DNA from: Fistulifera solaris
Lineage: Eukaryota
Assembly: GCA_030295235.1 (NCBI GenBank)
Contig: AP026162.1
Location: 558,001 to 622,000, forward strand
Direction of reading: 5' to 3'
DNA length: 64,000 nt
Under the pieces are notes generated by a model. The model did not search any database. It was not told the DNA's origin and saw nothing but the letters and a program-made list of their open reading frames with translations. The position numbers and the translations under genes were made by a program. Below are positions 20,232 through 38,643 of the stretch, in pieces (position 1 is the first letter of the stretch; each line of letters starts with the position of its first letter).

Positions 20232-20334
20232 CCCCCACATTTTCTGGAAACGTGAAAATACCGCCCTTCCACCCCCACATTTTCTGGAAACGTGAAAATA
20301 CCCTGCGCCCACGCATTTTTTGGACACGCGTGAA
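20232..20334. repeat. 40-bp tandem repeat (two full copies, one degenerate)
   Basis: CCCCCACATTTTCTGGAAACGTGAAAATACC at 20232 and 20272. Confidence 0.9.
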
Positions 20335-20532
20335 CCATCGCTGCTTTCGGCAAGCACGTTGTCACGCTTTATATTACGCGATACAAGGTACGGGCCGTGC
20401 GATCTCTTTCAGCTTATTATTCTGCTCCTGCCTTCTTATAAAAAAGGAACAAAACAAGCTGTGTTGTCTTCACTTATCTCGGTCAAAGGGGATTGTGTGG
20501 ATGGGCAGCAAATAGCGGCTTTATCCTATACT

Positions 20533-21810
20533 ATGAAGACTCTTTCAACAACCCAATTTCTCCTCCTGTTTGTTCTATTCGGAAAGTCCAAATCAAAGAA
20601 GACGATAAGGGGTGCTTCAGAGAACAACTTAAGGTTACAAAATGAGTTTCCGAGCATCGATGACACAGTAGAGATGGCGGCTCTTTCTGTGATTGTATAC
20701 ACGTTCCGCGATGTACTCGATGACACAGGCGTTTGTCAGATGGTGAATGAGCGAAATTTCAATACGACCGGCTTGCATGTTCCCGACGTCATTCAAAAGA
20801 ACACAGATATTGAGTGCCACTGGTATCTGCATGATCGAATACAAGGAACACAAGTCATGCTGGTTTCTTCTCCCTCCAAGAAGTACAACGCTTTAGTATT
20901 CGCTGGCACGGACAACATGAGGTCGGCGCTCACAGATGCGGATATCATGACGGTTCCGTTTGGTGATGGGGAAAGTACGGTATTGCCCCCCGATTTGGCA
21001 ATACGCGTCCATGCGGGTTTCAATCACGGTGTTTTTCTTCAAAAGATCTTTGCGCAAGTGCTGGACCATTTTCACGCGTTGCAGTCGAAATATCCTTCGC
21101 ATCGGCTGTTCACGACGGGTCATTCGCTGGGGGCGGCCGAGTCGATACTTGCGGCAGTCGCTCTTACCATGAAACAACGTGAACATAAGAGTCGCTATCG
21201 TTGGTGGCCTTGGAAGCGCAAAAAGACGGTTCAACCGATTACGAATATTAACTTTGGTTGTCCGAGAATTGGGAACGAGAACTGGAGAGCGTTTGTCGAC
21301 GACGATTCTTCCGTGGCAAATCTGGCCATCTGGCGACTTGTTCTGGGCTGGGATCTTGTACCACGCTTACCAGAACTATTCAAACACGTTGGTCACACCA
21401 TCGAGTTGCTGAAAAATAGTATTGCGGACGAAAGTGGGAGCAATGCCACTGCCGTGGCCTACTATCAACATTACGGAGACGAGTCTCTCGGGTTGGCGGG
21501 CGTCCCTTTTGGCTGGTCCGCCAAACCTTACATTTGGGTCCCAGGCGCCTTGTGGTCGCATCACGTCACCAAGTACTGGAGTGTATTAAATGATTGGGCC
21601 AACTCAACAGTGGAGCATCGAGCTGCGTGGGTGAGTGAGTTTGAAAAAGTGGATTCATCGCATAATAATAGCGACGACGGTAGATCAAGGAATGTTGACG
21701 ACGATTTCTGGGTGAATCCACCGGACGATGATTTCCGGTATAAAGACGATTTGCTCGATTCGCAACTCGAGCAAATGATATTGGATGAACCGTATCGCGC
21801 GGTTGCATAG
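20533..21810 (+). CDS. Secreted class 3 lipase
   Basis: Signal-like N-terminus (MKTLSTTQFLLLFVLFG), LVFAGT, VHAGF, TGHSLG nucleophile, FGCPRIGN, DLVPRLP and FKHVG. Confidence 0.9.
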   Translation: MKTLSTTQFLLLFVLFGKSKSKKTIRGASENNLRLQNEFPSIDDTVEMAALSVIVYTFRDVLDDTGVCQMVNERNFNTTGLHVPDVIQKNTDIECHWYLHDRIQGTQVMLVSSPSKKYNALVFAGTDNMRSALTDADIMTVPFGDGESTVLPPDLAIRVHAGFNHGVFLQKIFAQVLDHFHALQSKYPSHRLFTTGHSLGAAESILAAVALTMKQREHKSRYRWWPWKRKKTVQPITNINFGCPRIGNENWRAFVDDDSSVANLAIWRLVLGWDLVPRLPELFKHVGHTIELLKNSIADESGSNATAVAYYQHYGDESLGLAGVPFGWSAKPYIWVPGALWSHHVTKYWSVLNDWANSTVEHRAAWVSEFEKVDSSHNNSDDGRSRNVDDDFWVNPPDDDFRYKDDLLDSQLEQMILDEPYRAVA

Positions 21811-25467: not shown

Positions 25468-28099
25468 TTAATTAGCTACTTTGTAAGCAAACGCCAGCGT
25501 AATTACGAGTGACGTATCTTCCGGAGATGCGGTGCGTTCAAAAGATAAAAGCATTTCGCGGAATAGCTCTTGGTTCGACTCTGTGAAGTAAGTCGATCTT
25601 ACCGCGTCGATGCACTTGGGAGTTTTCAGGAATAATCCGAAGCAGCGAACAAATTCCGAAGAAACGGGTGGTCTAGCACACTCGAGCACTCCACCGACAA
25701 AGTAACGAATGAGAGATGCATCCAAATCAGACGATCCGTGCTGCTCCATTTTGTGGGATAATTTTCCAAGTACATCCGGTATCTCGCCTTCCAAGAGTAG
25801 AATGATAAGTAGCCGGATACTTTGTTCCTTGATTGTGGTCACCTTTTGATACGAAATATCTTGGTTCGAGTGTCCCAGGAAATTGACGGCAACGTCTATG
25901 ATCCGCTTTCGTGTGAATGGATGCTTCACACTGATAGTGCGGAGCAATGATAGAATGCTTACAGAAATCGTCGGAAACGCGGGAGAGCTTGCAAAATCTG
26001 TGCCGTGGGTGAACGCCTCGGCCCAAATGACAACGCCCTGAGCAATCGCAGCGCAGTTTAGCGCTAGCGAGCATAGCTTTTCGCCCGGTGATGTTCCACT
26101 CTTTGTCTCGTCCAAAAGCACCAGAAAAGAAACCATAGTTTCTAGCTGTTCACAAAGCTGACTCGCCTGAACTATCATCCTTGTAAGAGCTACTTCGTCC
26201 GAATAATCGCCCGCCATACCCCCCCTCTTCTCCTGCGGCTTTTTCTGCAGCTAGGACAGCAAATGCTAATAACCTTGCGCACTTGTTGCGGAGTACTGGA
26301 GCGACGACTCGCGTTGATCCTGGCTTGAATAAGTGTTCCAATAGGGCTTTGATTGCGACAGGGTGTTGGACGAAAAGCCTCCCAGTATCCGCGAAGGACG
26401 TGATATCAATGCCGCTGGGAAGAAGAGAATCCAGGACTACGTCATCAAGTTGCATTCCAACAGAGTGTCGGCGAAGAAAGGATAATAAAGCGGTCTCTAG
26501 TTTTCTTTTCGTCCCGTTGCCGTTCACCACATGTTGCTCATTGGATTCCGGATCATTCTTCACACGTCTCCTTTCGCTTTGATGAAGTTCACTCATAGTC
26601 AAAGCAACATCCAGTCTTCGCTTTCGAAACAAATGCGAAGTACCACTGGCATTTGATGGAGCTGACGGGTCGATCATTGAGTTTTCAAGACTTTGCGAAA
26701 GAGCACGCCATTTCCGAATAGCTCTGTTAAGTCGGGAGCCAGTGCTACTCCCGGCAACCTCCAGCGCCCGACTTACCAAATGACGTAGCATTTCCATCGA
26801 ATACAAATATGTGTACGAAGTAGAACAACAAGCTCTCACCAAATCGTCAACAAGATCATCTAGCTCCACGGCTGAAGAAATGTCGCTTTCGGCTGACACT
26901 GATACATTCCCAACAATTGTTAGCTCAGACTGCAGCATAGCATTGAAAACTGCAAAATGATCGGATTGGTTCACTCGCTTTGCAATTTCCCGGTGGTGGC
27001 CGCGCTTGGATATTGCCTGCAAGCAATAAATGAGAACAGCACTGTCCTTATGCACTGCGGAGAGATCGATGAGAAGCTTCCGCCATCGAGATGAGTCCAT
27101 CATTTCTTCCAGAAAAGCAGCTTCTGCTTTTGAAAGGTTCAAGATTCGATCGCCTGTTTCTTTCGAGAAACGTTCCTTCACAAAGCGGCTGATTACACCT
27201 TGAGTAATTTCGCGTACTGCATCCGTTGACTCTTGTGATGGACCATCCGCAGGTGTACCAGCAGAAGATGTAGCAGCTGTACGAAAATCAGCAAGCCAAC
27301 GCCCCAGAAGCCCACAAATAGCCGTTTGACCGTGATAGTTATCAATGAGTGACGTGATCGCTTTCTGAGGCTGTCCACCTTCACTTCGTACAACTTCCGC
27401 CACGTTTTTGATACAAGTAGGCTCTAGGATGGAATCGGTTTGATTCAAAGCAGCTTCCGCTTCCTGAACACGTAATACTTCCGGATCTACCCACTGTTTT
27501 TGGCTTTCTTGTTTCGCTGTCTCCGAAGCATCTTCTTTCGGCGATCCATGACGCTCTCCGTCGCCTTCCATTTCCATTTGCATAGACTCCCCACCGGTGT
27601 CGATGAGACCGCGATCAATGTCTACAATGGTTGCTGATCCTTCGACAGCCTCTGTTCCAGCTGTCTCCTCGTCAACTTCCAGATCTTCAGCGGACACGAC
27701 ATGTTCGTCCGGTTTCTCCCATTGTGTTTCCCCCGTTGATGAGTTGTAATAGTACTCGCGTCCTTCTTCGTCTTTGTATGCAATCCATTGTGAGACAACC
27801 TCTTCGGTGGGCTTTTCTGCTGAGTTGTCGCCGGCTTCTTGCTGATTACTGGTTGCTTCCGCTTGCTGAGCATCGATATTCGCTCCGTCGGTATTGACAT
27901 CATCCGTTGTGGCCACCGCAGTTTCCTCCCCCTCCACTATTTCCGGTGGATTGAACTTCCCATCTTCCGGTGGATCCCACGAGCTTTCTTCAGTGACGCT
28001 GTTGTAGTAATAAAGCCGGCCTTCTTCATCATAGTAGGCGGACCAATCATGCACGTCGCTTTCTATTTGTGGTGTTTTTTCTGTTGTTAGTTCAGACAT
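25468..28099 (-). CDS. NELFCD: NELF-C/D (TH1-like) protein with two N-terminal WW domains; frameshift at C7 run 26219-26225
   Basis: Two WW domains (WSAYYDEEGRLYYYN...SSWDPP; WIAYKDEEGREYYYN...TQWEKP). TH1 motifs DSILEP...GGQPQKAITSLIDNY, FLEEMMDSSRWRKLLIDL and DASLIRYFV..VL....PP.SSEFV. Confidence 0.85.
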
Positions 28100-28869: not shown

Positions 28870-31800
28870 ATGACTTCGTATGGCAGCATCCAGGGAAACA
28901 CGTCGCCGTCGAACACCGACCTTCATGAGACAACTCCCCTCGTGAATGGTAGAAACGACAGCAACAATGAGCACATATCGACAAAGTGTAGTTACTGGTC
29001 GAAACTTACCTTTCACTGGTTTACTCCAGTTCTGTATCGAGGAAACGAAAAACTCAAACTTGATCAAGACGATCTTGACCTCGTGCCTTTGTTAAATGAC
29101 TGCGAGACCGACTATGTAACGAACACCTTCGATATGTATTGGGGGCAAGAGCTGCAGAAGGACTCTCCGTGTTTGGTAACCGCATTGACACGGGCATTTG
29201 GGGCGGAATATTTAGAGGGTGCTGCCTTGAAACTCGTGCATGATCTCTGCTTATTTGTGGGGCCACAAGTTCTCCACAGCATGATTGTTTTTCTGAGAGA
29301 TCCCGATGCACCACTGATATGGGGTTTGTGGCTCATTTTCGCTGTGACGATAAGTCAGTTGGCCATGAGCATTTGCCTCCGGCACTACTTTTACAAGGTA
29401 AGTGATTTAAGACAGCCGCTAAATCTTGAATCAGTTCCAATTTGGCACAACTCACTGTTCCCTTCAAGTGCTACACAACTGGACTGCGAACTAGAACAGC
29501 AATTGTCATGGCAGTCTATCGAAAAGCTCTACTTTTAAGTCCGGAGGAAAGACAAAGTCGTAGCATCGGTGAGATCACTAATCTTGCTTCGATTGATGCA
29601 CAACGCTTACAAGGTACGAAAGGAACCTTGTTTTCAGATTGTTAAATTGCATGTTTCTCACCGACAATCATTGATCAAAAATAGACTTGACAACGTATTT
29701 GAATGCTGTTTGGTCTAGTCCCCTCCAGATTGGCCTCGCTCTTTTCTTTCTGTGGAGGCAACTGGGTCCGAGCTCGCTGGGAGGCGTATCCGTCATCATT
29801 ATTATGATCCCAGTAACAAAGTACATAGCGACTTGGATGGGCAATATGCAAGCAAGTCTGATGAAAGCAAAAGACGAAAGAGTGGAGCTAAACGCAGAAG
29901 TGTTGGGCGGAATGAAAGTTATCAAGTTTCAAGCTTGGGAAGAGTCGTTTCAAAAAAGAATACAAACGCTTCGTGAAGCAGAGTTAGCGCAACTGCTGCG
30001 ATACTTTTTGGGGACCTCATTTTCTCGCATGTTGTGGGTATTCACACCACTCTTGGTTGCTCTTGCAACCTTTTCTGCTTACGTTTGGAGTGGTCATAAA
30101 CTCGATGTGGCTTCAGCGCTGACTGCTTTATCTCTTTTCGATCTTCTTCGATTTCCACTATTTATGTTGCCGCAAAGTAAGTTACTTCGAAATTAGTTCT
30201 TGCTTCTTCGGTGTGCGTGTCTTCTCATATTCGGAATGACAGCCATCAATTCAATCATTGAAGCAGCAGTTTCAATTGATCGCCTTCGAAGCTTTTTCAT
30301 TAGCGAAGAGCATCATGCGGTAGGACCGGGAAATCTGACAGAAAACGGAATCAACGTTAATGGTGTTTCGGCTGTATATGGTTCGAAAAGCACAGAAGGA
30401 GGGACTACTGCTCGAGCAGAGCGAAAGGGCACACTGGAGAAGGATAGGGAAGTTGCTATTCTGAGAGCCTTACTTTTAGACGCTGAACAAGAAATCCAGA
30501 AACTGCAAGGTGAACAATCCGATTCGCGCCAAGAGCCAGTAATTGACCAGGCAAGCTCGTCGCTTTGTCTGCGAAGGGTAAATTTTAAAATTCACCAAGG
30601 AGAAGTTATCGCGATTGTGGGCTCAGTTGGTAGTGGGAAAAGTTCGCTGATTAATAGCATTCTCGGCGAATTACGAATACTGACAGGCAAAACTGAAGTT
30701 AAGGGAACCTTGGCGTATTTTTCTCAGACCCCTTTTATCATGAACGCATCCGTCCGCGATAACATATTGTTCGGTCATGTGAACGAGCCTGTCGACGAAA
30801 ATCTTTATCAGCGCGCGCTCGATTGCTGTGCTTTGCGGCATGATCTGTCTTTATTACCCGATGGTGATCAGACTGAAATAGGTGAAAGAGGTATTACATT
30901 GTCGGGTGGGCAGAAAGCGAGAGTTGCTCTGGCGCGAGCTGTGTATCATAGAGCCGATATCACACTCGTTGACGATGCTCTTTCGGCTGTTGATGCGCAC
31001 GTTGCGAAGCACTTGTTTGATCGAGCTATTCTTGACGAGTTGATGCAGCCTACTATCCCAGGTAGTATGCGCAGTGTCGTCTTGGTTACCAATGCTCTTC
31101 AATACTTGAATCATCCTAGAATCAACAAAATATACGTCATTGAAGACGGTCGGATTGTGGAGGAAGGTTCTTACAATTCATTATCAAACAACTCAGATTC
31201 AGTCTTCGCCCGAATTTTATCGGTAATAAAAGATAACAAAGTGTCGAAAGACCTGTCAGAAACTGAAGACGATTTGAATACGGAACCAAAAAAAACTCTA
31301 ACTTCCACTTTAAGCGATAACGGACATAATCTTACAGCAAAGGACGCAAAACCGTCTAAGCTGGTTTCCGAAGAGCTAAGAAAAACAGGGAAAATTTCTA
31401 CTGAGGCATATTTATCTTGGATACATGCATCAGGTGGCTTCATGATTGCCTTTTTCATTTTGGTTCTGTTCGCCGCGGGTGAGGGGGTGGGCTTTCTCTC
31501 GAATTGGTGGTTGACTTACTGGTCTCGACATGCAGACGAGGCAAGTCAGTTTAGTTTTCTCAGTACATACGCTATCATCAATCTATCTGCTGCTTTGGCA
31601 GGGGTTTTCCGCATGCTTTTTGTTGCTTTGGTCAGCCTCAAGGCCTCTCGTCATGTAAGATAATTCGTTTTCCTTTGTGCTGATTGCCATTTCCTTTCCA
31701 TTCTAATGTGGTCTCATTGCAGTTGTTTGATGGTCTGCTGAACGCGGTCCTCTTTGCGCCCATGTCATTCTTCGACACGACGCCTGTCGGGCGGTTGGTG

Positions 31801-33459
31801 AACCGATTTAGTAAAGGTACGTTGGAAACTGATTCACTAGCAGATGTATAAACTTTCAGAGAAGCCAGCACCTCATGATTCGTTTCACCAGATGTTTACA
31901 CCATTGACGAGCAATTGGTTCAAACACTCAGAATGTACTTGCAGACTCTTTTTTCGATCTTAAGTACATTTGTAGTCATATCAGGTGTAACTCCGACGTT
32001 TCTTGTCGGACTTGTCCCACTTTGTCTGTTTTATATATCAGAGCAGCGCTTTTTTTACGGTAAGTCTCGAAATACCTGTCCTTGCAAATTTGGCGTCCGC
32101 ATTTGTCTTATGCAATAAATTCTTGTAGCTTACGTACCGCGAGTTAAAACGACTTGACTCTGTTCTGCGATCGCCGATCTATGCGCTTTTGGGCGAAACA
32201 ATAGATGGAGTTGCATGTATCCGAGCTTTTTCAGCACAAAGATCACTGACAGATAGGCTCAAAGTTATGCTTAATGAACAGCAGCATGCATACTTTTTGA
32301 CATGCACAGCACAATCATGGCTGGCCGTTAGGTTGGAGCTAATCGGAACTTTGGTAATCACTTTCGCTACAACAAGTGCAGTCGTGGAGCATGCTCTGTT
32401 TGGCGCAGATGAGACTTTCGCTGGATTGGCAGGACTGGCAATCTCATACGCTTTATCGGTCACGCAATCACTGAATTGGAGTGTTCGTATGGCCAGTGAT
32501 CTCGAAGCTAATATGGTGGCCGTCGAGAGGGTTCAGGAATATTCCCAGATTCGTCATGAGGGGCTTCGCAATGCCGAGCTTGACGAAAAACTTACCCCAA
32601 CTTGGCCGACGCACGGCGAAATTGTCTTCAAAGGAGCAAAGCTGCGTTACCGTCCCAACCTTCCTTTAGTTCTCAAAGGCCTCGATTTACACATACCTTC
32701 AGGGTCTAAGATTGGTGTTGTTGGGCGCACAGGTTCGTTTCAATTTTCTCTTTGAAATTCCGTTTTATTATTAATTCGACTCGATTTCTCATCGGTTTAT
32801 GTTTGGCTTCATTAGGGGCTGGAAAGTCGACGCTTATGGTGGCGCTGATGAGAATAGTTGAATTGGATGAAGGAAGTATTTCGATTGATGGTGTTGACAT
32901 TCGACAGATTGGTCTAGGAAAACTTAGACGAAATGTTGCCGTTATACCTCAAGATCCAGTTCTGTTTAGCGGAACAATACGAAGCAACCTTGATCCATTT
33001 GACGAATTCAGCGATGAGCAGCTACACGCAGTTCTTGAAAGTGTTGGTCTGTACAAGAGAACCATGGAGGGATCAATGCACAGTTACTCATCGCTACCGT
33101 TGGCCCGGGTTGATTCCATCGATGACTCAGTAGCTGAAGGTGGTATTAACTATTCCGTTGGACAGCGGCAACTTGTAGTAATAGCCAGAGCACTTCTCCA
33201 GGGAGCGAAGATAGTCATCATCGATGAAGCTACGGCAGCGGTTGATGCAGAGACCGACGCTGCAATTCAAAGAGTCTTGAGAATGGAGTTTGCTAATGCT
33301 ACATGTCTAACTGTCGCTCACCGATTGAACACGATCATGGACAGCGATTTTATTCTAGTCATGGACGATGGTAAACTTGCCGAGTTTGACAAGCCCGATG
33401 CTCTTGTGCGAAAGGGTGGCTTGTTTAGAGATCTTGTCAAAGCTGCTTCTCACGATTAA
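28870..33459 (+). CDS. ABCC/MRP-type full ABC transporter, multi-exon
   Basis: TMD1; NBD1 ([32 protein letters not shown]); TMD2 ([15 protein letters not shown]); NBD2 ([31 protein letters not shown]); several GT-AG introns. Confidence 0.95.
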
Positions 33460-33696: not shown

Positions 33697-35553
33697 TTAG
33701 GCGCTTTCAGCTTCAGGGTTCTTCATCTCGGCCAACTGTTTCTCATACTTTTGACTTCGGCGGAATAAAGTTAGTGCAAAGATCAGAAGGATCACGCAAA
33801 GCAGACCCAGCCCAATGCTCAAACCAGGTGTGAGCGAGTTTTGACCTTTTGATTTAGCGTTAGGCAACTCTGGTTGAACAGGACAATTAATGAACATAGC
33901 CTTTTCGACATCATAGTCCCAGCGAGGTGTCAGCTCCACGTCGCAATATGGGGCATCCAATGGGAAAACATTGTCTACAGTGCGCTCAAGACCGCCCATC
34001 TCTGTTTCCAAAATTCGTGCTTTATTGATGGCATGAATGATAGTCTTCCGCACGGTTATATCATTGAGAGGAGTTTTCCCAGAGTTCAAAAGGAGCAGTA
34101 CATTTTGAACATCATCTGTGAAGAAGACCGACAAATTATTGGTTTCTTCGTTATTTTCGATCTCAATCAGATCTTGTGCACTCAAAACACCAGATCCCCA
34201 AACCACGTCCAATGATCCATCTAATAACGCTTTCTTTACCTGTTCTGCTGTGTCGTATCTCACAACAAGTAGCTCTTCGATTTGAGAAGCACCTCCCCAG
34301 TAATTATCATGTCGCGCAAATAGAACTTCATCATCAACAACATCACCATCGGCATTTGTGGAAGACGTTCGACTACGGAACATGAAGGGTCCCGTACCCG
34401 AAATATTCTTTATCCCCGCACAGATGATGGATGAATCATCGTTCTCGGGAGAAGTGACATTTCCCCATCCAGCATGACACGAGTTACCTGTCACTGGATC
34501 TTTATCAACAAATGCTGCAGGCGATAACATTCGAAGAGGCCGAATAAAAGAGAGCTCTTGAAGAAAAGGGTAGTACACTGACTTGGTAACTACCACAAAT
34601 GTGGCGGAATCTTCGCAGCTCCATTCCGATATTTGTTGCGGCAGTCCATACCAACCATGGTAATCGGCAGATAGAAGCGGATCCGCTAAAACGTGATCGA
34701 AATTGATCTTGGCTGCTTCACAATTCCAGGGTGTACCGTCGTGAAACGTGACCCCTGTTCGCAATGAAAACGTGTATTTCTGCCCCCCGTTTGAGTGTGG
34801 CTCGATTTTATACGATTGTGCCAAGGCGGGAAGAATCTGACCGTACTCTCCGTAACTCACAAGACCTTCGTAGACCCAGTTATTTGCGAAAAATTCGTTG
34901 GGACGGTAGGTGTGAGGATCAAGACGACCGACCGACTGAAATACTCCCGTTTGAGCTCCAGGTGAGATGCGCACTGTGGTGGATCCGGAGAGAACTTGCA
35001 ATCGATGCACGGGGTAGTCAAATTGCTGTAACCCGGCTTGGTAGCCCGTCAATCTGTTGTTTAAAACAGTCGGCACACGTTTACCCCACAACGGCAACAT
35101 GACAGCCTGTTGATGAAGAACATTGTGTATATCTTTCCACTTCGTTTCACGCTCCCGGTGGTCCGACTCCTGAAGTACGTCCTGGATCATGTCGAAAATC
35201 GCATCCCTCGATGCTGGTGGCTCCAAGTTGGCCATTGCATGATAATGTCCTTCATCGCCCGTCATCCATCCCGAAGCGAACGAATGGGGATCGTAGGGGG
35301 CGCCCCACGTTTCACTAAACGACAAATGGAAGTCACCCGTCTCGTGGGCCTTGTTGAAATCTTCTTTGGACAGAAATCGTGGAGTAACTGTAATGCCCAG
35401 TCGTTCTAAATCCATTCGAATGTCATCCTCGATTGAGACCAGAGAAACGTCCCCTTCTACCATGATGAAGTCGATCGTATGCTTCTTGCAATCATTCTGG
35501 ACCGTTTGTGCCAGCAACATGGTAGGTGCAAGAACCAGAAGCAACGCCAACAT
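33697..35553 (-). CDS. Membrane-anchored NikA/CntA-like (SBP family 5) metal-complex-binding protein, ZCRP-B-like, circularly permuted
   Basis: Signal peptide (MLALLLVLAPTMLLA; an upstream in-frame ATG lies at 35616). NikA motifs TWGAPYDPH, VGRLDPHTYRPN, VYEGLVSY, TFSLRTGVTFHDG, YYPFLQELSFIRP, GTGPF and NYWG. C-terminal TM helix plus short basic tail. Intronless. Confidence 0.9.
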   Translation of the reverse strand: MLALLLVLAPTMLLAQTVQNDCKKHTIDFIMVEGDVSLVSIEDDIRMDLERLGITVTPRFLSKEDFNKAHETGDFHLSFSETWGAPYDPHSFASGWMTGDEGHYHAMANLEPPASRDAIFDMIQDVLQESDHRERETKWKDIHNVLHQQAVMLPLWGKRVPTVLNNRLTGYQAGLQQFDYPVHRLQVLSGSTTVRISPGAQTGVFQSVGRLDPHTYRPNEFFANNWVYEGLVSYGEYGQILPALAQSYKIEPHSNGGQKYTFSLRTGVTFHDGTPWNCEAAKINFDHVLADPLLSADYHGWYGLPQQISEWSCEDSATFVVVTKSVYYPFLQELSFIRPLRMLSPAAFVDKDPVTGNSCHAGWGNVTSPENDDSSIICAGIKNISGTGPFMFRSRTSSTNADGDVVDDEVLFARHDNYWGGASQIEELLVVRYDTAEQVKKALLDGSLDVVWGSGVLSAQDLIEIENNEETNNLSVFFTDDVQNVLLLLNSGKTPLNDITVRKTIIHAINKARILETEMGGLERTVDNVFPLDAPYCDVELTPRWDYDVEKAMFINCPVQPELPNAKSKGQNSLTPGLSIGLGLLCVILLIFALTLFRRSQKYEKQLAEMKNPEAESA

Positions 35554-35616
35554 CTTAGACAGAAGATAAGATAATCGAATATTCGGATCTCCTCCAAGTA
35601 GAATTGTGCGAGGCAT

Positions 35617-36180
35617 ACCATCTACCGATTTCTAGAAAAAATTGTGAGACCAAGGCCAAACTTCAGCACAACATCGAGGCCTACATGCATTACAATTTAG
35701 CCTCGAATCAAGCTCGGTCGGCAAACTTCATGTCTCTATACTTTTGGCTCCATTTTGTTACGTTTTATTTTGCCTATTGCTGGGTTGAAAGGCCTTGGCA
35801 TTAAGAAGCCTCTTTGTTCAATCGTTGATGCTTTACGGCTTCAGCTATAATAATTGAATCGTTTCAACCCAGTTGTGAAATCAATCATTTGTGTCGAAGT
35901 AAAATAGAAAATGAGGTTTCGGCCTTGTTAAAGGCAATTTAGAGCCTATGAGCAGTAACCAGCGCTCACAGTCCCGTATTGGTCCGGCCCTAGAAATAGC
36001 CTAAATATGTGTCACTTTTTCGCACGCGACACGCGACGACAACGGCCTTCCCCCCACGAGGAGTCGTCGATCTTGGGCGAAGGAAGGCTACAATTGTTAA
36101 AAGTGGCTGTCGGCGGGAATATTCTATCTGCAAAAGAAAGACTCCGTAATGTTCTTTCCACATAATTTTGTGACTTGACC
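35617..36180. promoter_or_regulatory. Putative bidirectional promoter between the NikA-like gene and the ferric reductase
   Basis: ~560-bp gap between divergent ATGs, with clustered GGCC(TT) motifs. Confidence 0.55.
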
Positions 36181-38643
36181 ATGACACAAGTCGCAGGGAT
36201 TATCGTGGCTTTGCTTGGCAGTCTTGTATTTCAACTGCAGAAAAATTCGAGTAATATTCTGTACTTTTATGGAAACAGCTGGAGCTGCACCACATGGCAA
36301 GAATGGACATGGATCGCGCTCACAGGGCTACTTATGCTTATGCTTCAAATGAAACCAAACAGTCAGATCGACCCGCCGTCAGAACAAGCGAAGACCAAGC
36401 TCTTTCTATGCTTCTTGGCAATCAACTTCATATGGTTTTTTGTTGCCATCGCGGAATTTGATTACACGTTCTCGGTAGTAAAGGCAGTAGAGTTTCTTGG
36501 GGCGAAAGCTGCCTGGCCAGGCATGTGGAATTTAGCATTTGTGATTTTCCCCATCAAGCGCTCGTCTGAAATGTTGGCGATCTCACACAAAGATTTATTA
36601 TTCCTTCATATTTGGGCTGGACAAGCCATCTTCTTCTGGTTAGCCGTCCACACGGTGCTCTTATCCATCGCATACGCAGTAAATCTTGACTATTCACTTC
36701 GAAATTGGACAAAGGTAATGATCCCATCCGATAACTTGTATACAGAAGGCGTAGTGAATTTCATGGGGTGGCTTGGACTAGCCATGCTTCTACTTTTGTG
36801 GCTCACTTCTCGACCGTGGTTCCGCAAACATTGTTATGAGATGTTCTCCTTCCTGCATCTAGTGACAGCCGCGTCCTTCATTCTGTTCTCCAATCTTCAC
36901 GATTACAACACAATCCATTTTATTCAACCGGCATTTGCTGCGTGGATCGCTGAGCGACTAGTGCGGCGTATTTCCACCGTGAACGTAATGATCGAAAAAA
37001 CACCACCACCTACTACTGTTGAAGATGGGATCCTCGGTAATGGCGGTATCCTCGCTGTTTCGATTTGTGAAACAAGTGGGAGAAAAGATTTTCCTCCTTT
37101 GGTGCGTCTTACCATGACTTTACCACGATCCTGGAATGTTTGTCCTGGAACGGCAGCATTCCTGTATCTGAAATGTCCGAGCATTTCCAACTGGCAGCTA
37201 CATCCATTCTCGATTAGCACGATTGACGTCGAGAGCATGACGTTTTCTGTACATATCAAAGCTCTCGGTGATTGGACGAATCAGTTTGTTCGGCAATTAA
37301 ATCAGCTTGTCGTCAAAGCGGACTTGCCGCTCGACGATCATCAAACTGGTCGGGAGGAGGCAAGTGAAACAATTCAAAATGCCACGAACCAGTTTGGTCT
37401 TTGCATTGAAGGTCCCTATTGCTCAGATCTTGGTGCACAATTGGATTCCGATCAAAAGTGCTTATTCATAGCTGGAGGAGTGGGCCTCACCGGCTTGTCT
37501 GAAGTCTTATACCGCCGACACGGACGTGGACAAGCGACGCTACTGGTTTGGATCCTCCGCACTATCGAGGAAATGGACTTTCTGGCCAAAGACTTACTTG
37601 ATCGCCTACAACCACCAAGGGACACAACACAAATCATGGTGTATATCACGCGCCAAGACGAGCGTTACGAACGTCGTCGCCGGCAGACCGCGAAAGTGGA
37701 TCACACACCGTTGCTGCTGCCCGGCTATGTCAAGTCAATCGACAGGACTGCAGCGGCAAAGAATTCGATCTTGACGTTTCCTACCATTGTCGAAGAGACG
37801 TCCACAAATCCAGATCAAAAACCGATGTCACTTGTCAGCCTTCTCGGAGTCTCCCTCAGTTTCTTGCTTGCTCGGATGGCCTGCTGCAATAGGACCGTAC
37901 GTGATACCGAGACCGGTAGAATTCTCCACACCTGTTCCGCAGTAACTAGAGCCTCGACCAGTATGACCTGTTCCAATTCATGCCAAGATGATGGCTTTTC
38001 TTGCTGTACCACGCCTATCTGTTTCTACTGCTTCCGAGGGTTGCCCGTGCTCTTCATGTTCATCCTGGCTCCTTTGTTGCCTCTTCTGTTTGCGTGGGTC
38101 TACCCGTACTGTATTCAGGTCACGAAATGGGTGCGCAAAGCCATTCGACCTCATCACGTTGCACCAGGGTTCCGATCTTGTACGTTAATACCGCTTCGCA
38201 TGGCGGGTCGGTCGGCATCGGCAGTGGAGGATACCTCCGAAAATTCCGTAACATACGGTGATGCAAGGAACGATTCGTTGCGAGTGATAGACCATTTGTG
38301 TCAACGAAACGCGCCTGCCATCATGACCAATCTCAATCACACCACTGTTGAGTTTCGAAAACCAAAGTTGTCGCAAATTATTCAAGAGTTCGGTGCCTCC
38401 GTGGGCAGAAACGAGGATGAAGACTTTGCTTTCCGCGAAAATAGCCACGTCCGGAGAAACGCAGAGGAGGCCGCGGTTTTTGTTTGCGGATCCAAAGCTC
38501 TCGCTGAAAGTGTGTTGAAGGAGGTGGAAATCTACAATAGTAATGATACAAGCAATGACGAAAGAAGCACGTCATCTCATGGAGCTTCTCGATCGAACCG
38601 ACGTGTTACTTTGTCAGTATGGACGGCCACCGGGGCCTATTGA
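36181..38643 (+). CDS. Ferric reductase (FRE/FRO family) flavocytochrome
   Basis: Heme-ligating His pairs (FLHIWAG...AVHT; FLHLVT...NLHD), FAD motif HPFSIS, HIKALGDWT, EGPY, NADPH motif FIAGGVGLT and C-terminal VFVCGS. Intronless, ~820 aa. Confidence 0.93.
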   Translation: MTQVAGIIVALLGSLVFQLQKNSSNILYFYGNSWSCTTWQEWTWIALTGLLMLMLQMKPNSQIDPPSEQAKTKLFLCFLAINFIWFFVAIAEFDYTFSVVKAVEFLGAKAAWPGMWNLAFVIFPIKRSSEMLAISHKDLLFLHIWAGQAIFFWLAVHTVLLSIAYAVNLDYSLRNWTKVMIPSDNLYTEGVVNFMGWLGLAMLLLLWLTSRPWFRKHCYEMFSFLHLVTAASFILFSNLHDYNTIHFIQPAFAAWIAERLVRRISTVNVMIEKTPPPTTVEDGILGNGGILAVSICETSGRKDFPPLVRLTMTLPRSWNVCPGTAAFLYLKCPSISNWQLHPFSISTIDVESMTFSVHIKALGDWTNQFVRQLNQLVVKADLPLDDHQTGREEASETIQNATNQFGLCIEGPYCSDLGAQLDSDQKCLFIAGGVGLTGLSEVLYRRHGRGQATLLVWILRTIEEMDFLAKDLLDRLQPPRDTTQIMVYITRQDERYERRRRQTAKVDHTPLLLPGYVKSIDRTAAAKNSILTFPTIVEETSTNPDQKPMSLVSLLGVSLSFLLARMACCNRTVRDTETGRILHTCSAVTRASTSMTCSNSCQDDGFSCCTTPICFYCFRGLPVLFMFILAPLLPLLFAWVYPYCIQVTKWVRKAIRPHHVAPGFRSCTLIPLRMAGRSASAVEDTSENSVTYGDARNDSLRVIDHLCQRNAPAIMTNLNHTTVEFRKPKLSQIIQEFGASVGRNEDEDFAFRENSHVRRNAEEAAVFVCGSKALAESVLKEVEIYNSNDTSNDERSTSSHGASRSNRRVTLSVWTATGAY

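Follow-up and report, generated by a model that had tools for sequence, protein, structure and literature searches.

An apparently undescribed circular permutation of the NikA-type domain in a putative membrane-anchored protein from Fistulifera solaris

We analysed a stretch of 64,000 nucleotides from the eukaryote Fistulifera solaris (GenBank assembly GCA_030295235.1, contig AP026162.1, positions 558,001 to 622,000 of the forward strand; hereafter the window) and within it one gene on the (-) strand, the product of which (P0001) looks from its sequence like a type I membrane protein in which the ectodomain, of the NikA type (Pfam family SBP_bac_5), is permuted. NikA is the periplasmic nickel/metallophore-binding protein of the NikABCDE ATP-binding cassette (ABC) importer, and when compared with NikA of Escherichia coli the predicted ectodomain of P0001 has its C-terminal part placed ahead of its N-terminal part, a rare and apparently undescribed rearrangement which would be common to a large family of marine algal proteins. 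Taken as a whole, we consider it probable that P0001 is a cell-surface, single-pass, NikA-type receptor for chelated metal, which was circularly permuted once in an already anchored lineage of eukaryote-type proteins, and of which the end cysteines are joined by a disulfide bond.

Chain order of the NikA-like domain

The best match of P0001 among the PDB sequences was E. coli NikA (phmmer, 1uiu_A, E=2.3e-56), aligned in three stretches in rotated order: query residues 228-385 with NikA 13-163 (i-E-value 3.6e-27), residues 406-576 with NikA 160-318 (i-E-value 1.6e-12) and residues 52-176 with NikA 346-467 (i-E-value 8.9e-11), a rotated match that is far beyond chance by these sequence scores. 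BLASTP gave two offset diagonals against each of 10 full-length bacterial open reading frames (ORFs); in one of these (L002, 529 amino acids) residues 228-564 of the query were aligned with 37-336 of the subject, and residues 40-207 with 363-527. Together the diagonals cover the domain, with the old termini fused and the new termini at a formerly internal site, which is the definition of a circular permutation. The rotated phmmer stretches and the BLASTP diagonals bear out the permutation relative to E. coli NikA that had been proposed from the letters of this DNA and its translated ORFs, without database searches (the sequence-only reading); the two offset diagonals expected in that reading are seen, and it is excluded that the ectodomain aligns collinearly with NikA over its full length.

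The Pfam profile PF00496 (SBP_bac_5) was matched with E=3e-41 (142.2 bits, cut-off 32.4), with the match broken into two stretches of which the best spans only positions 2-269 of the 368 in the profile, and P0001 does not follow the canonical SBP_bac_5 order of N-terminal part and then C-terminal part. The TIGR02294 (nickel_nikA) profile was matched by P0001 in three stretches (300.4 bits, under the equivalog cut-off of 393), and the match of the normal-order algal protein P0411 was one unbroken stretch (profile positions 14-499 of 501; 391.3 bits). An AlphaFold2 model built from 118 homologues had a mean predicted local distance difference test score (pLDDT) of 91.4 and a predicted template modelling score of 0.83, with a pLDDT of 98 for the blocks spanning the join (residues 201-220). 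In a Foldseek search with this model the NikA structures came first (E=3.6e-22), with 371-385 columns aligned of targets of ~500 residues and template modelling scores of 0.52-0.56 when normalised by target length; such short alignments are to be expected when a sequential aligner meets a permuted chain. There were 171 PDB matches at E≤0.001, those listed being all family 5 binding proteins, and the model has the two-lobed fold. The predicted ectodomain is confirmed by these comparisons as a NikA-type (cluster C, SBP_bac_5) binding domain in rotated order.

The anatomy of the join and the cut was taken from the alignment with normal-order relatives, with NikA numbering from the phmmer alignment; all coordinates of this gene are on the (-) strand. 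The first segment (C', residues 44-211, 34984..35487) is homologous to NikA ~337-502, the C-terminal third, as seen in the third phmmer stretch and the BLASTP alignment with L002, and includes the TWGAPYDPH motif (35284-35310). The second segment (N', residues 212-577, 33886..34983) is homologous to NikA ~1-320 based on the first two phmmer stretches, BLASTP and the model, and finishes with the YD.EKA helix (residues 570-577). At the join (residues ~209-214, 34975..34992) the old C-terminal end (199-211) passes almost directly into the old N-terminal strand (212-228), which carries AQTG[LIV]F and is the mature N-terminus in the normal-order algal relatives too. A short added linker had been placed here, but residues 212-228 are mostly native strand, the old ends are connected by just 2-3 residues, and there is no floppy linker.

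At the cut, the domain starts three residues ahead of the strand formed by residues 46-53 and stops at the helix 570-577, the folded domain now being bounded by Cys43 (35488..35490) on the N-terminal side and by Cys578 (33883..33885) on the C-terminal side. The phmmer alignment puts Cys578 at NikA position 320 and Cys43 at 337. Missing here are ~15 residues, which in normal-order proteins make up a surface hairpin of varying length behind the YD.EKA helix. The suggestion that a cysteine lies at each end of a formerly continuous chain is therefore correct for both cysteines and needs amending for the chain, from which ~15 canonical residues have gone. The second lobe of NikA is one continuous stretch, whereas its first lobe is built from both chain ends; if this layout applies to P0001, the permutation would make the first lobe continuous and split the second.

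Occurrence and origin of the permuted order

Bacterial relatives were obtained by a pattern scan of one genome per bacterial or archaeal species with two order-independent motifs, resulting in 62 loci. The NikA order was found in all 62 loci fetched (60 by script, L021 and L049 by reading the high-scoring segment pairs), and no permuted bacterial relative was present among them. A word-indexed search gave 504 relatives at E≤1e-5, and for the best 120 of these single BLASTP alignments span 73-98% of the query and hence cross the junction; named sources of permuted-type proteins are Symbiodinium, Chloropicon primus, Nitzschia inconspicua, Skeletonema menzelii, Thalassiosira exigua and a Bacillariaceae metagenome-assembled genome. 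An exhaustive search of 1.84 billion representatives gave 7904 matches at E≤0.001 (187 at E≤1e-30), with the best 150 consisting of 30 junction-spanning proteins, 42 proteins in NikA order and 78 fragments without a class. When a stricter test was applied to all proteins gathered, the junction was spanned by 156.

The two normal-order searches resulted in 87 and 88 matches at stricter thresholds, bacterial proteins included, and among 85 further proteins 75 had the normal order (48 with a transmembrane-like tail), four were permuted and six were not classed. Whether the permuted order is common to all algal homologues was a check put forward in the sequence-only reading; it is not, since normal-order algal relatives exist. 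Two normal-order groups (eukA and eukB) look eukaryotic, with a signal peptide, a Ser/Gly-rich stalk, a C-terminal transmembrane (TM) helix and a short tail; named normal-order members are P0411 (Nannochloris sp. 'desiccata'; 45% identity to P0001 over N' and 39% over C'), P0364 (Octactis speculum) and the MMETSP transcript P0375. The diatom-type sequences also include deeply diverged lineages of permuted paralogues (P0288 of Pseudo-nitzschia multiseries, 604 amino acids, as well as P0128, P0122 and P0276), which are 39-48% identical to P0001, and one species may hold several permuted copies with different roles. Cluster look-ups gave a weak indication of origin for two other proteins, with a Bacillariophyta cluster for P0172 and bacterial look-alikes for P0146.

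A phylogenetic tree was made with a careful IQ-TREE search from 62 rows, consisting of 21 permuted, 16 normal-order eukaryote-type (9 eukA and 7 eukB) and 25 bacterial sequences; P0355, which had a very long branch in an earlier tree, was omitted, and L024 was omitted from both tree sets. All 21 permuted rows form one clade (ultrafast bootstrap 98, Shimodaira-Hasegawa-like approximate likelihood ratio test 91, given in this order below), and there is a single change to the permuted order in 96% of 200 bootstrap trees. The permuted and normal-order eukaryote-type rows are together split from the 25 bacterial rows (100/100), and P0127 is the sister of the remaining 20 permuted rows (100/100). 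Ten of the tree rows have an unusual composition. Three derived features found in both chain orders agree with the tree, i.e. the AQTG[LIV]F strand, an insertion with the Cys380/Cys399 pair (34411..34485, from the alignment of the permuted, eukA, eukB and bacterial rows) and the replacement by Glu of the residue equivalent to NikA His416. On this tree, the permutation is a single event inside the normal-order lineage of eukaryote-type proteins.

Because the normal-order relatives already have both signal peptide and anchor, the halves of the ectodomain would have changed places while the signal peptide and the anchor on either side stayed as they were. The simplest routes would be the textbook one, with an internal tandem duplication from which the outer parts were then lost, or a one-step swap of segments, which would have the same outcome. 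The prokaryote-like lipoprotein P0238 (1016 amino acids) contains two complete family 5 domains in tandem, and its middle aligns in the permuted order; its predicted domain layout shows that the first step of a duplication-deletion route does occur in the superfamily. P0111 was considered as a tandem intermediate and rejected, as its long N-terminus is an unrelated coiled-coil-like extension, probably from a fused gene model. In the 64-kb window, tblastn searches did not detect a second copy or remnant of the domain.

Membrane anchor, binding pocket and cysteines

The gene is a single uninterrupted ORF of 639 codons plus stop (33697..35616), to which the PF00496 match belongs. Met22 at position 35553 is the likely start, as it opens a signal-peptide-like stretch, and the gene model in the database (P0002, 618 amino acids) also starts at 35553. 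The signal-peptide-like hydrophobic N-terminus covers residues 22-38 (35503..35553, pLDDT 55-62), while at the other end the folded domain is followed by a stalk (residues 579-597, 33826..33882, pLDDT 62-65), a predicted TM helix (residues 598-618, 33763..33825, a hydrophobic run and a model helix from 595 to 632) and a short, presumably cytosolic tail (residues 619-639, 33700..33762) in which a motif scan did not find [RK]E[KR]xGxP[VM]F. The positions which the sequence-only reading had assigned to TWGAPYDPH, Cys43, Cys578, the join, the stalk and the TM helix were all correct when the sequence was read again.

The module LSGGAIAG...TM...[RK]E[KR]xGxP[VM]F is present in 39 of the 54 TM-bearing normal-order proteins and in 9/92 TM-bearing permuted proteins, the latter including P0123, P0128, P0288 and P0413, whereas P0001 has lost the tail motif. 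This motif directly follows the TM helix on the cytosolic side in the tails of P0128, P0288, P0123, P0413, P0411, P0172 and others, and may be a sorting or endocytosis signal. It had been thought that the permutation enabled tethering to the membrane, but normal-order algal relatives already have the C-terminal stalk, TM helix and tail, and because the anchor predates the permutation, the latter is not supported as the cause of tethering. The sole predicted change in the tether is its attachment point, which moved from the old C-terminus to the helix ending at residue 577.

With regard to the binding pocket, we compared the equivalents of NikA residues in the 21 permuted and 25 bacterial rows. 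Conserved in both are Tyr22 (Tyr237 in P0001; Tyr in 21/21 permuted and 24/25 bacterial rows), His98 (His320; 21/21 and 24/25), Trp100 (Trp322; 21/21 and 25/25), Arg137 (Arg359; 21/21 and 25/25), Tyr402 (Tyr108; 21/21 and 24/25) and Trp398 (Trp104; 20/21 and 22/25). We take Arg137 to be carboxylate-binding, and Tyr22, Trp100, Trp398 and Tyr402 to be the aromatic pocket of NikA. Two positions have changed: Arg97 is Tyr319 in P0001 (Tyr in seven, Trp in seven and Arg in three of the 21 permuted rows, with Arg in 17/25 bacterial rows), with an aromatic or hydrophobic replacement at this position in eukaryote-type proteins, and His416, the nickel ligand of NikA, whose importance the title of PDB entry 3qim states, is Glu122. 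The latter lies in the sequence DEGH (residues 121-124, 35245-35256), corresponding to the loop that carries His416 in NikA, and Glu is found there in 17/21 permuted, 6/9 eukA and 7/7 eukB rows, with His in 21/25 bacterial rows. As the change from His416 to Glu is present in all three eukaryote-type groups, the change in specificity would predate the permutation. The pocket looks built for a metal held in an organic, carboxylate-bearing chelator, with altered specificity, and the surface protein probably captures such a metal-organic ligand complex and would pass it on to a transporter, a reductase or endocytosis, a role like that put forward in print for the diatom Zn/Co-scarcity protein ZCRP-B.

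Some relatives have additional sequences that may be connected with metal binding. In P0022, P0034, P0037, P0021 and P0025, His/Asp-rich tracts of the HDHDHD type follow the signal peptide, ahead of the N-terminal Cys, and could be an extra metal-binding arm; at least four His residues in this stretch were found in 5 of the 83 homologues with enough N-terminal sequence, and not in P0001. Fusions to a Peripla_BP_2 domain (PF01497, siderophore/cobalamin-type) are seen N-terminally in P0087 (981 amino acids) and C-terminally in P0127 (1037 amino acids), while according to precomputed Pfam domains the normal-order protein P0372 (1079 amino acids) likewise has Peripla_BP_2, which suggests that these two kinds of chelate receptor are functionally connected.

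P0001 has cysteines at positions 43, 299, 334, 380, 399, 558, 578 and 607, the last inside the TM helix, leaving seven in the ectodomain. In the 118-sequence alignment of homologues Cys299, Cys334, Cys380 and Cys399 are invariant and Cys578 is present in 117, while 111 have an N-terminal Cys no more than 20 residues ahead of the DF column, as a rule 6-9 ahead of the Asp, with the other seven sequences being N-truncated; at position 558 there are 100 sequences with Cys, 17 with Ser and one with Ala. Both end cysteines are present in 112 of the 114 permuted sequences complete at both ends, and the cysteine noticed at each new end is thus real and conserved; P0127 has neither, and P0111 has the C-terminal one and another Cys one residue beyond the range searched. 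No Cys is found at the end positions in the normal-order eukaryote-type (0/16) and bacterial (0/25) rows. Cys299 and Cys334 are likewise confined to the permuted clade (20/21, both missing in P0127), whereas Cys380 together with Cys399 is present in 21/21 permuted, 9/9 eukA and 4/7 eukB rows; the bacterial rows have a gap in the Cys380 column (25/25) and no Cys in the 399 column. Cys558 is ancestral, being Cys in 12/25 bacterial and 13/16 normal-order eukaryote-type rows. The confident region of the model, from ~41 to ~580, starts and stops at the end cysteines (pLDDT 94 for blocks 41-50 and 571-580, and 55 and 65 outside).

The simplest pairing would be 43-578, 299-334 and 380-399 with Cys558 free, and because of the conservation pattern we think it most likely that a Cys43-Cys578 disulfide restores covalent continuity in the split lobe. 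That a disulfide staples the cut was part of the sequence-only reading, and it is supported by the pattern of cysteine conservation.

Several points weigh against a receptor that was permuted once among anchored algal proteins and then stapled. The two segments of the permuted rows were re-ordered before alignment for the tree, with the columns at the cut and join dropped, and the sister group of the permuted clade has a support of only 55/25. The algal origin of most permuted sequences and of all eukA sequences except P0411, which are environmental records, is deduced from a small number of named sequences and from the signal peptide, stalk and TM helix. No eukaryote-type tandem (N-C-N-C) or half-tandem intermediate was present among the 18 gathered proteins of at least 760 amino acids, and P0238, the sole tandem form found, is distant (22-24% identity). 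Finally, P0127, the earliest permuted branch, persists without both permuted-specific cysteine pairs; the fold can thus form without a staple, at any rate in a chain that continues into a second domain, and the staple would either have been added after the permutation or lost in P0127.

It is possible, if on the whole unlikely, that the permutation is real and a selectively neutral by-product of duplication and deletion, with end cysteines that form ordinary secretory-pathway disulfides and a tether point without meaning. Both chain orders persist in algae on anchors of one kind, the replacements in the pocket (Glu for His416, an aromatic residue for Arg97) are older than the permutation, P0127 does without end cysteines, and the second permuted-specific pair, Cys299/Cys334, sits away from the cut. 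However, retention of the end pair in all but two of the complete members, across diatoms, dinoflagellates and green algae, implies a strong constraint, and the permuted clade gives most of the relatives found, although such counts depend on queries and sampling. Rather doubtful is the more far-reaching proposal that an ancient, single-origin natural permutation of a cluster C binding protein in a eukaryotic surface receptor, sealed later by an end disulfide acquired for the purpose, re-hung the receptor from its other lobe and so let it work without an ABC permease, with the metal chelate delivered to another partner such as a ZIP transporter, a reductase at the cell surface or the machinery of endocytosis; if true, this would explain why the permuted form supplies most relatives in diatoms, dinoflagellates and some green algae.

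A different arrangement, in which the end cysteines are not paired with each other, Cys578 being bound to Cys558 and Cys43 being free, intermolecular or a metal ligand, has in its favour the odd number of seven ectodomain cysteines and the mere 20 residues between Cys558 and Cys578. We consider it improbable, given that Cys558 is replaced by Ser or Ala in 18 of the 118 homologues while Cys578 is kept in all but one, that Cys558 already occurs in bacterial and normal-order eukaryote-type relatives which all lack Cys578, and that Cys43 and Cys578 are lost jointly in P0127; a bond between Cys43 and Cys578 is the pairing we prefer. That the apparent permutation is an artefact of mis-assembly or mis-prediction, or the middle of a larger N-C-N-C gene, is very hard to believe even though tandem SBP5 proteins exist and the middle of P0238 reads as permuted, as the window contains one continuous ORF with a signal peptide ahead and a TM helix behind, without flanking domain remnants in the 64 kb (tblastn), the junction is spanned by the 156 proteins from independent assemblies, including MMETSP transcripts and named genomes, and the chain is folded by AlphaFold2 as one confident domain.

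Gene neighbourhood, known systems and significance

The window has a G+C content of ~45% and is eukaryotic nuclear DNA. Upstream of the NikA-like gene, at ~560 bp and divergently oriented, is a ferric-reductase/NOX-type gene (36175..38643, (+) strand; Ferric_reduct 8.1e-13, FAD_binding_8 1.8e-12, NAD_binding_6 2e-8), the product of which is a possible functional partner of the NikA-like protein. On the other side and tail-to-tail with the NikA-like gene is a gene for an exporter-type ABC protein (30200-33459, (+) strand), with an ABC_membrane and two ABC_tran matches over several ORFs, which probably contains introns and is not an importer of the NikBCDE type. Further genes encode a TH1-domain protein with WW domains (26150-28099, (-) strand) and a class 3 lipase (20320-21810, (+) strand), and as these are ordinary eukaryotic genes they confirm the nuclear genome context. 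No NikB/C/D/E-like or binding-protein-dependent permease gene was found among the 12 window ORFs scanned. We also looked for CACGTG-type motifs, which we assume to be an iron-responsive element of diatom promoters; CACGTG is missing from the intergenic region (35617-36174) and occurs three times in the whole window versus 14 expected by chance, and iron-responsive regulation of the gene pair via this motif was dropped.

Among solved structures, E. coli NikA (1uiu, 1zlq, 3dp8, 3qim) is the best match of P0001 in both sequence and fold. When compared with NikA, P0001 has the rotated order, lacks the ~15-residue hairpin, has three extra cysteine pairs, and has Glu for His416 and Tyr for Arg97; while NikA is a free periplasmic protein, P0001 has a signal peptide and a C-terminal TM anchor. 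The second-best solved group is Staphylococcus aureus CntA (5yh5, 5yhe; E=7e-34), which according to the PDB titles binds metals complexed with an organic chelator (staphylopine). CntA has its fold in common with P0001, but has the normal order and is a lipoprotein and part of an ABC importer, and P0001 scores 194 bits on the NF047575 profile against a cut-off of 800. Normal-order anchored algal proteins such as P0411 and P0364 share with P0001 the eukaryote-type clade (100/100), the AQTG[LIV]F strand, the Cys380/399 insertion (9/9 eukA, 4/7 eukB), the His416-to-Glu change and the series of stalk, TM helix and tail, and differ from it in having the NikA order, the hairpin, and no Cys at positions 43, 578, 299 and 334.

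The diatom proteins FBP1 and FRE2 reportedly form a siderophore uptake pair, in which FBP1 is said to have the Peripla_BP_2 fold and not SBP_bac_5. The arrangement in the window resembles that pair in having a surface-tethered bacterial-type binding protein beside a divergent ferric reductase, but P0001 belongs to SBP_bac_5, unlike FBP1, and nothing here ties the gene to iron.

A diatom protein of the same domain family is described by Kellogg et al. (2022, PMC9010474) as ZCRP-B, a NikA-like SBP family 5 protein with 30.5% identity to E. coli NikA, which in that description rises under Zn or Co scarcity, is single-pass and located at the cell membrane in diatoms, has homologues in dinoflagellates including Symbiodinium, and is proposed to enrich metal at the cell surface so as to supply ZIP transporters or endocytosis; the proteins named in the supplement are XP_002183815.1 and XP_002297477.1. 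The family found from the window includes Symbiodinium 'nikA' proteins (51-52% identity) and has a NikA-like SBP family 5 domain in diatom and dinoflagellate proteins, as described for ZCRP-B, and compared by description only it is probably the same family. A difference is that for ZCRP-B of Phaeodactylum tricornutum one TM segment is predicted near the N-terminus (PMC9010474), whereas in P0001 the N-terminus is a signal peptide and the TM helix is C-terminal. The terms 'permut' and 'disulfide' are both absent from the main text of PMC9010474, and our literature search, with subscription journals outside its coverage, did not find a natural circular permutation of NikA-type or family 5 binding proteins. 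Both the family and the type of event are known; their combination seems undescribed, and concerns a protein that currently attracts interest in ocean trace-metal biology.

The family is probably that of ZCRP-B as described, which has been put forward as a marker of oceanic zinc stress. About a third of the chain is misplaced in collinear alignments to NikA and in homology models based on it, and profile tools under-score the family, with a partial Pfam match and a TIGR02294 score below the cut-off. The defined breakpoint is a rare genomic change marking one clade, and can be used to trace the spread of this bacterial-type gene among diatoms, dinoflagellates and green algae. The replacement of His416 by Glu, the siderophore-type fusions and the ferric-reductase neighbour lead to testable ideas on the metal complex that is bound. 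Finally, the family represents a natural experiment in which a two-lobed fold occurs with either lobe continuous, in related proteins and on the same anchor, and the relation of chain connectivity, hinge motion and tether point to ligand capture is directly testable within it.

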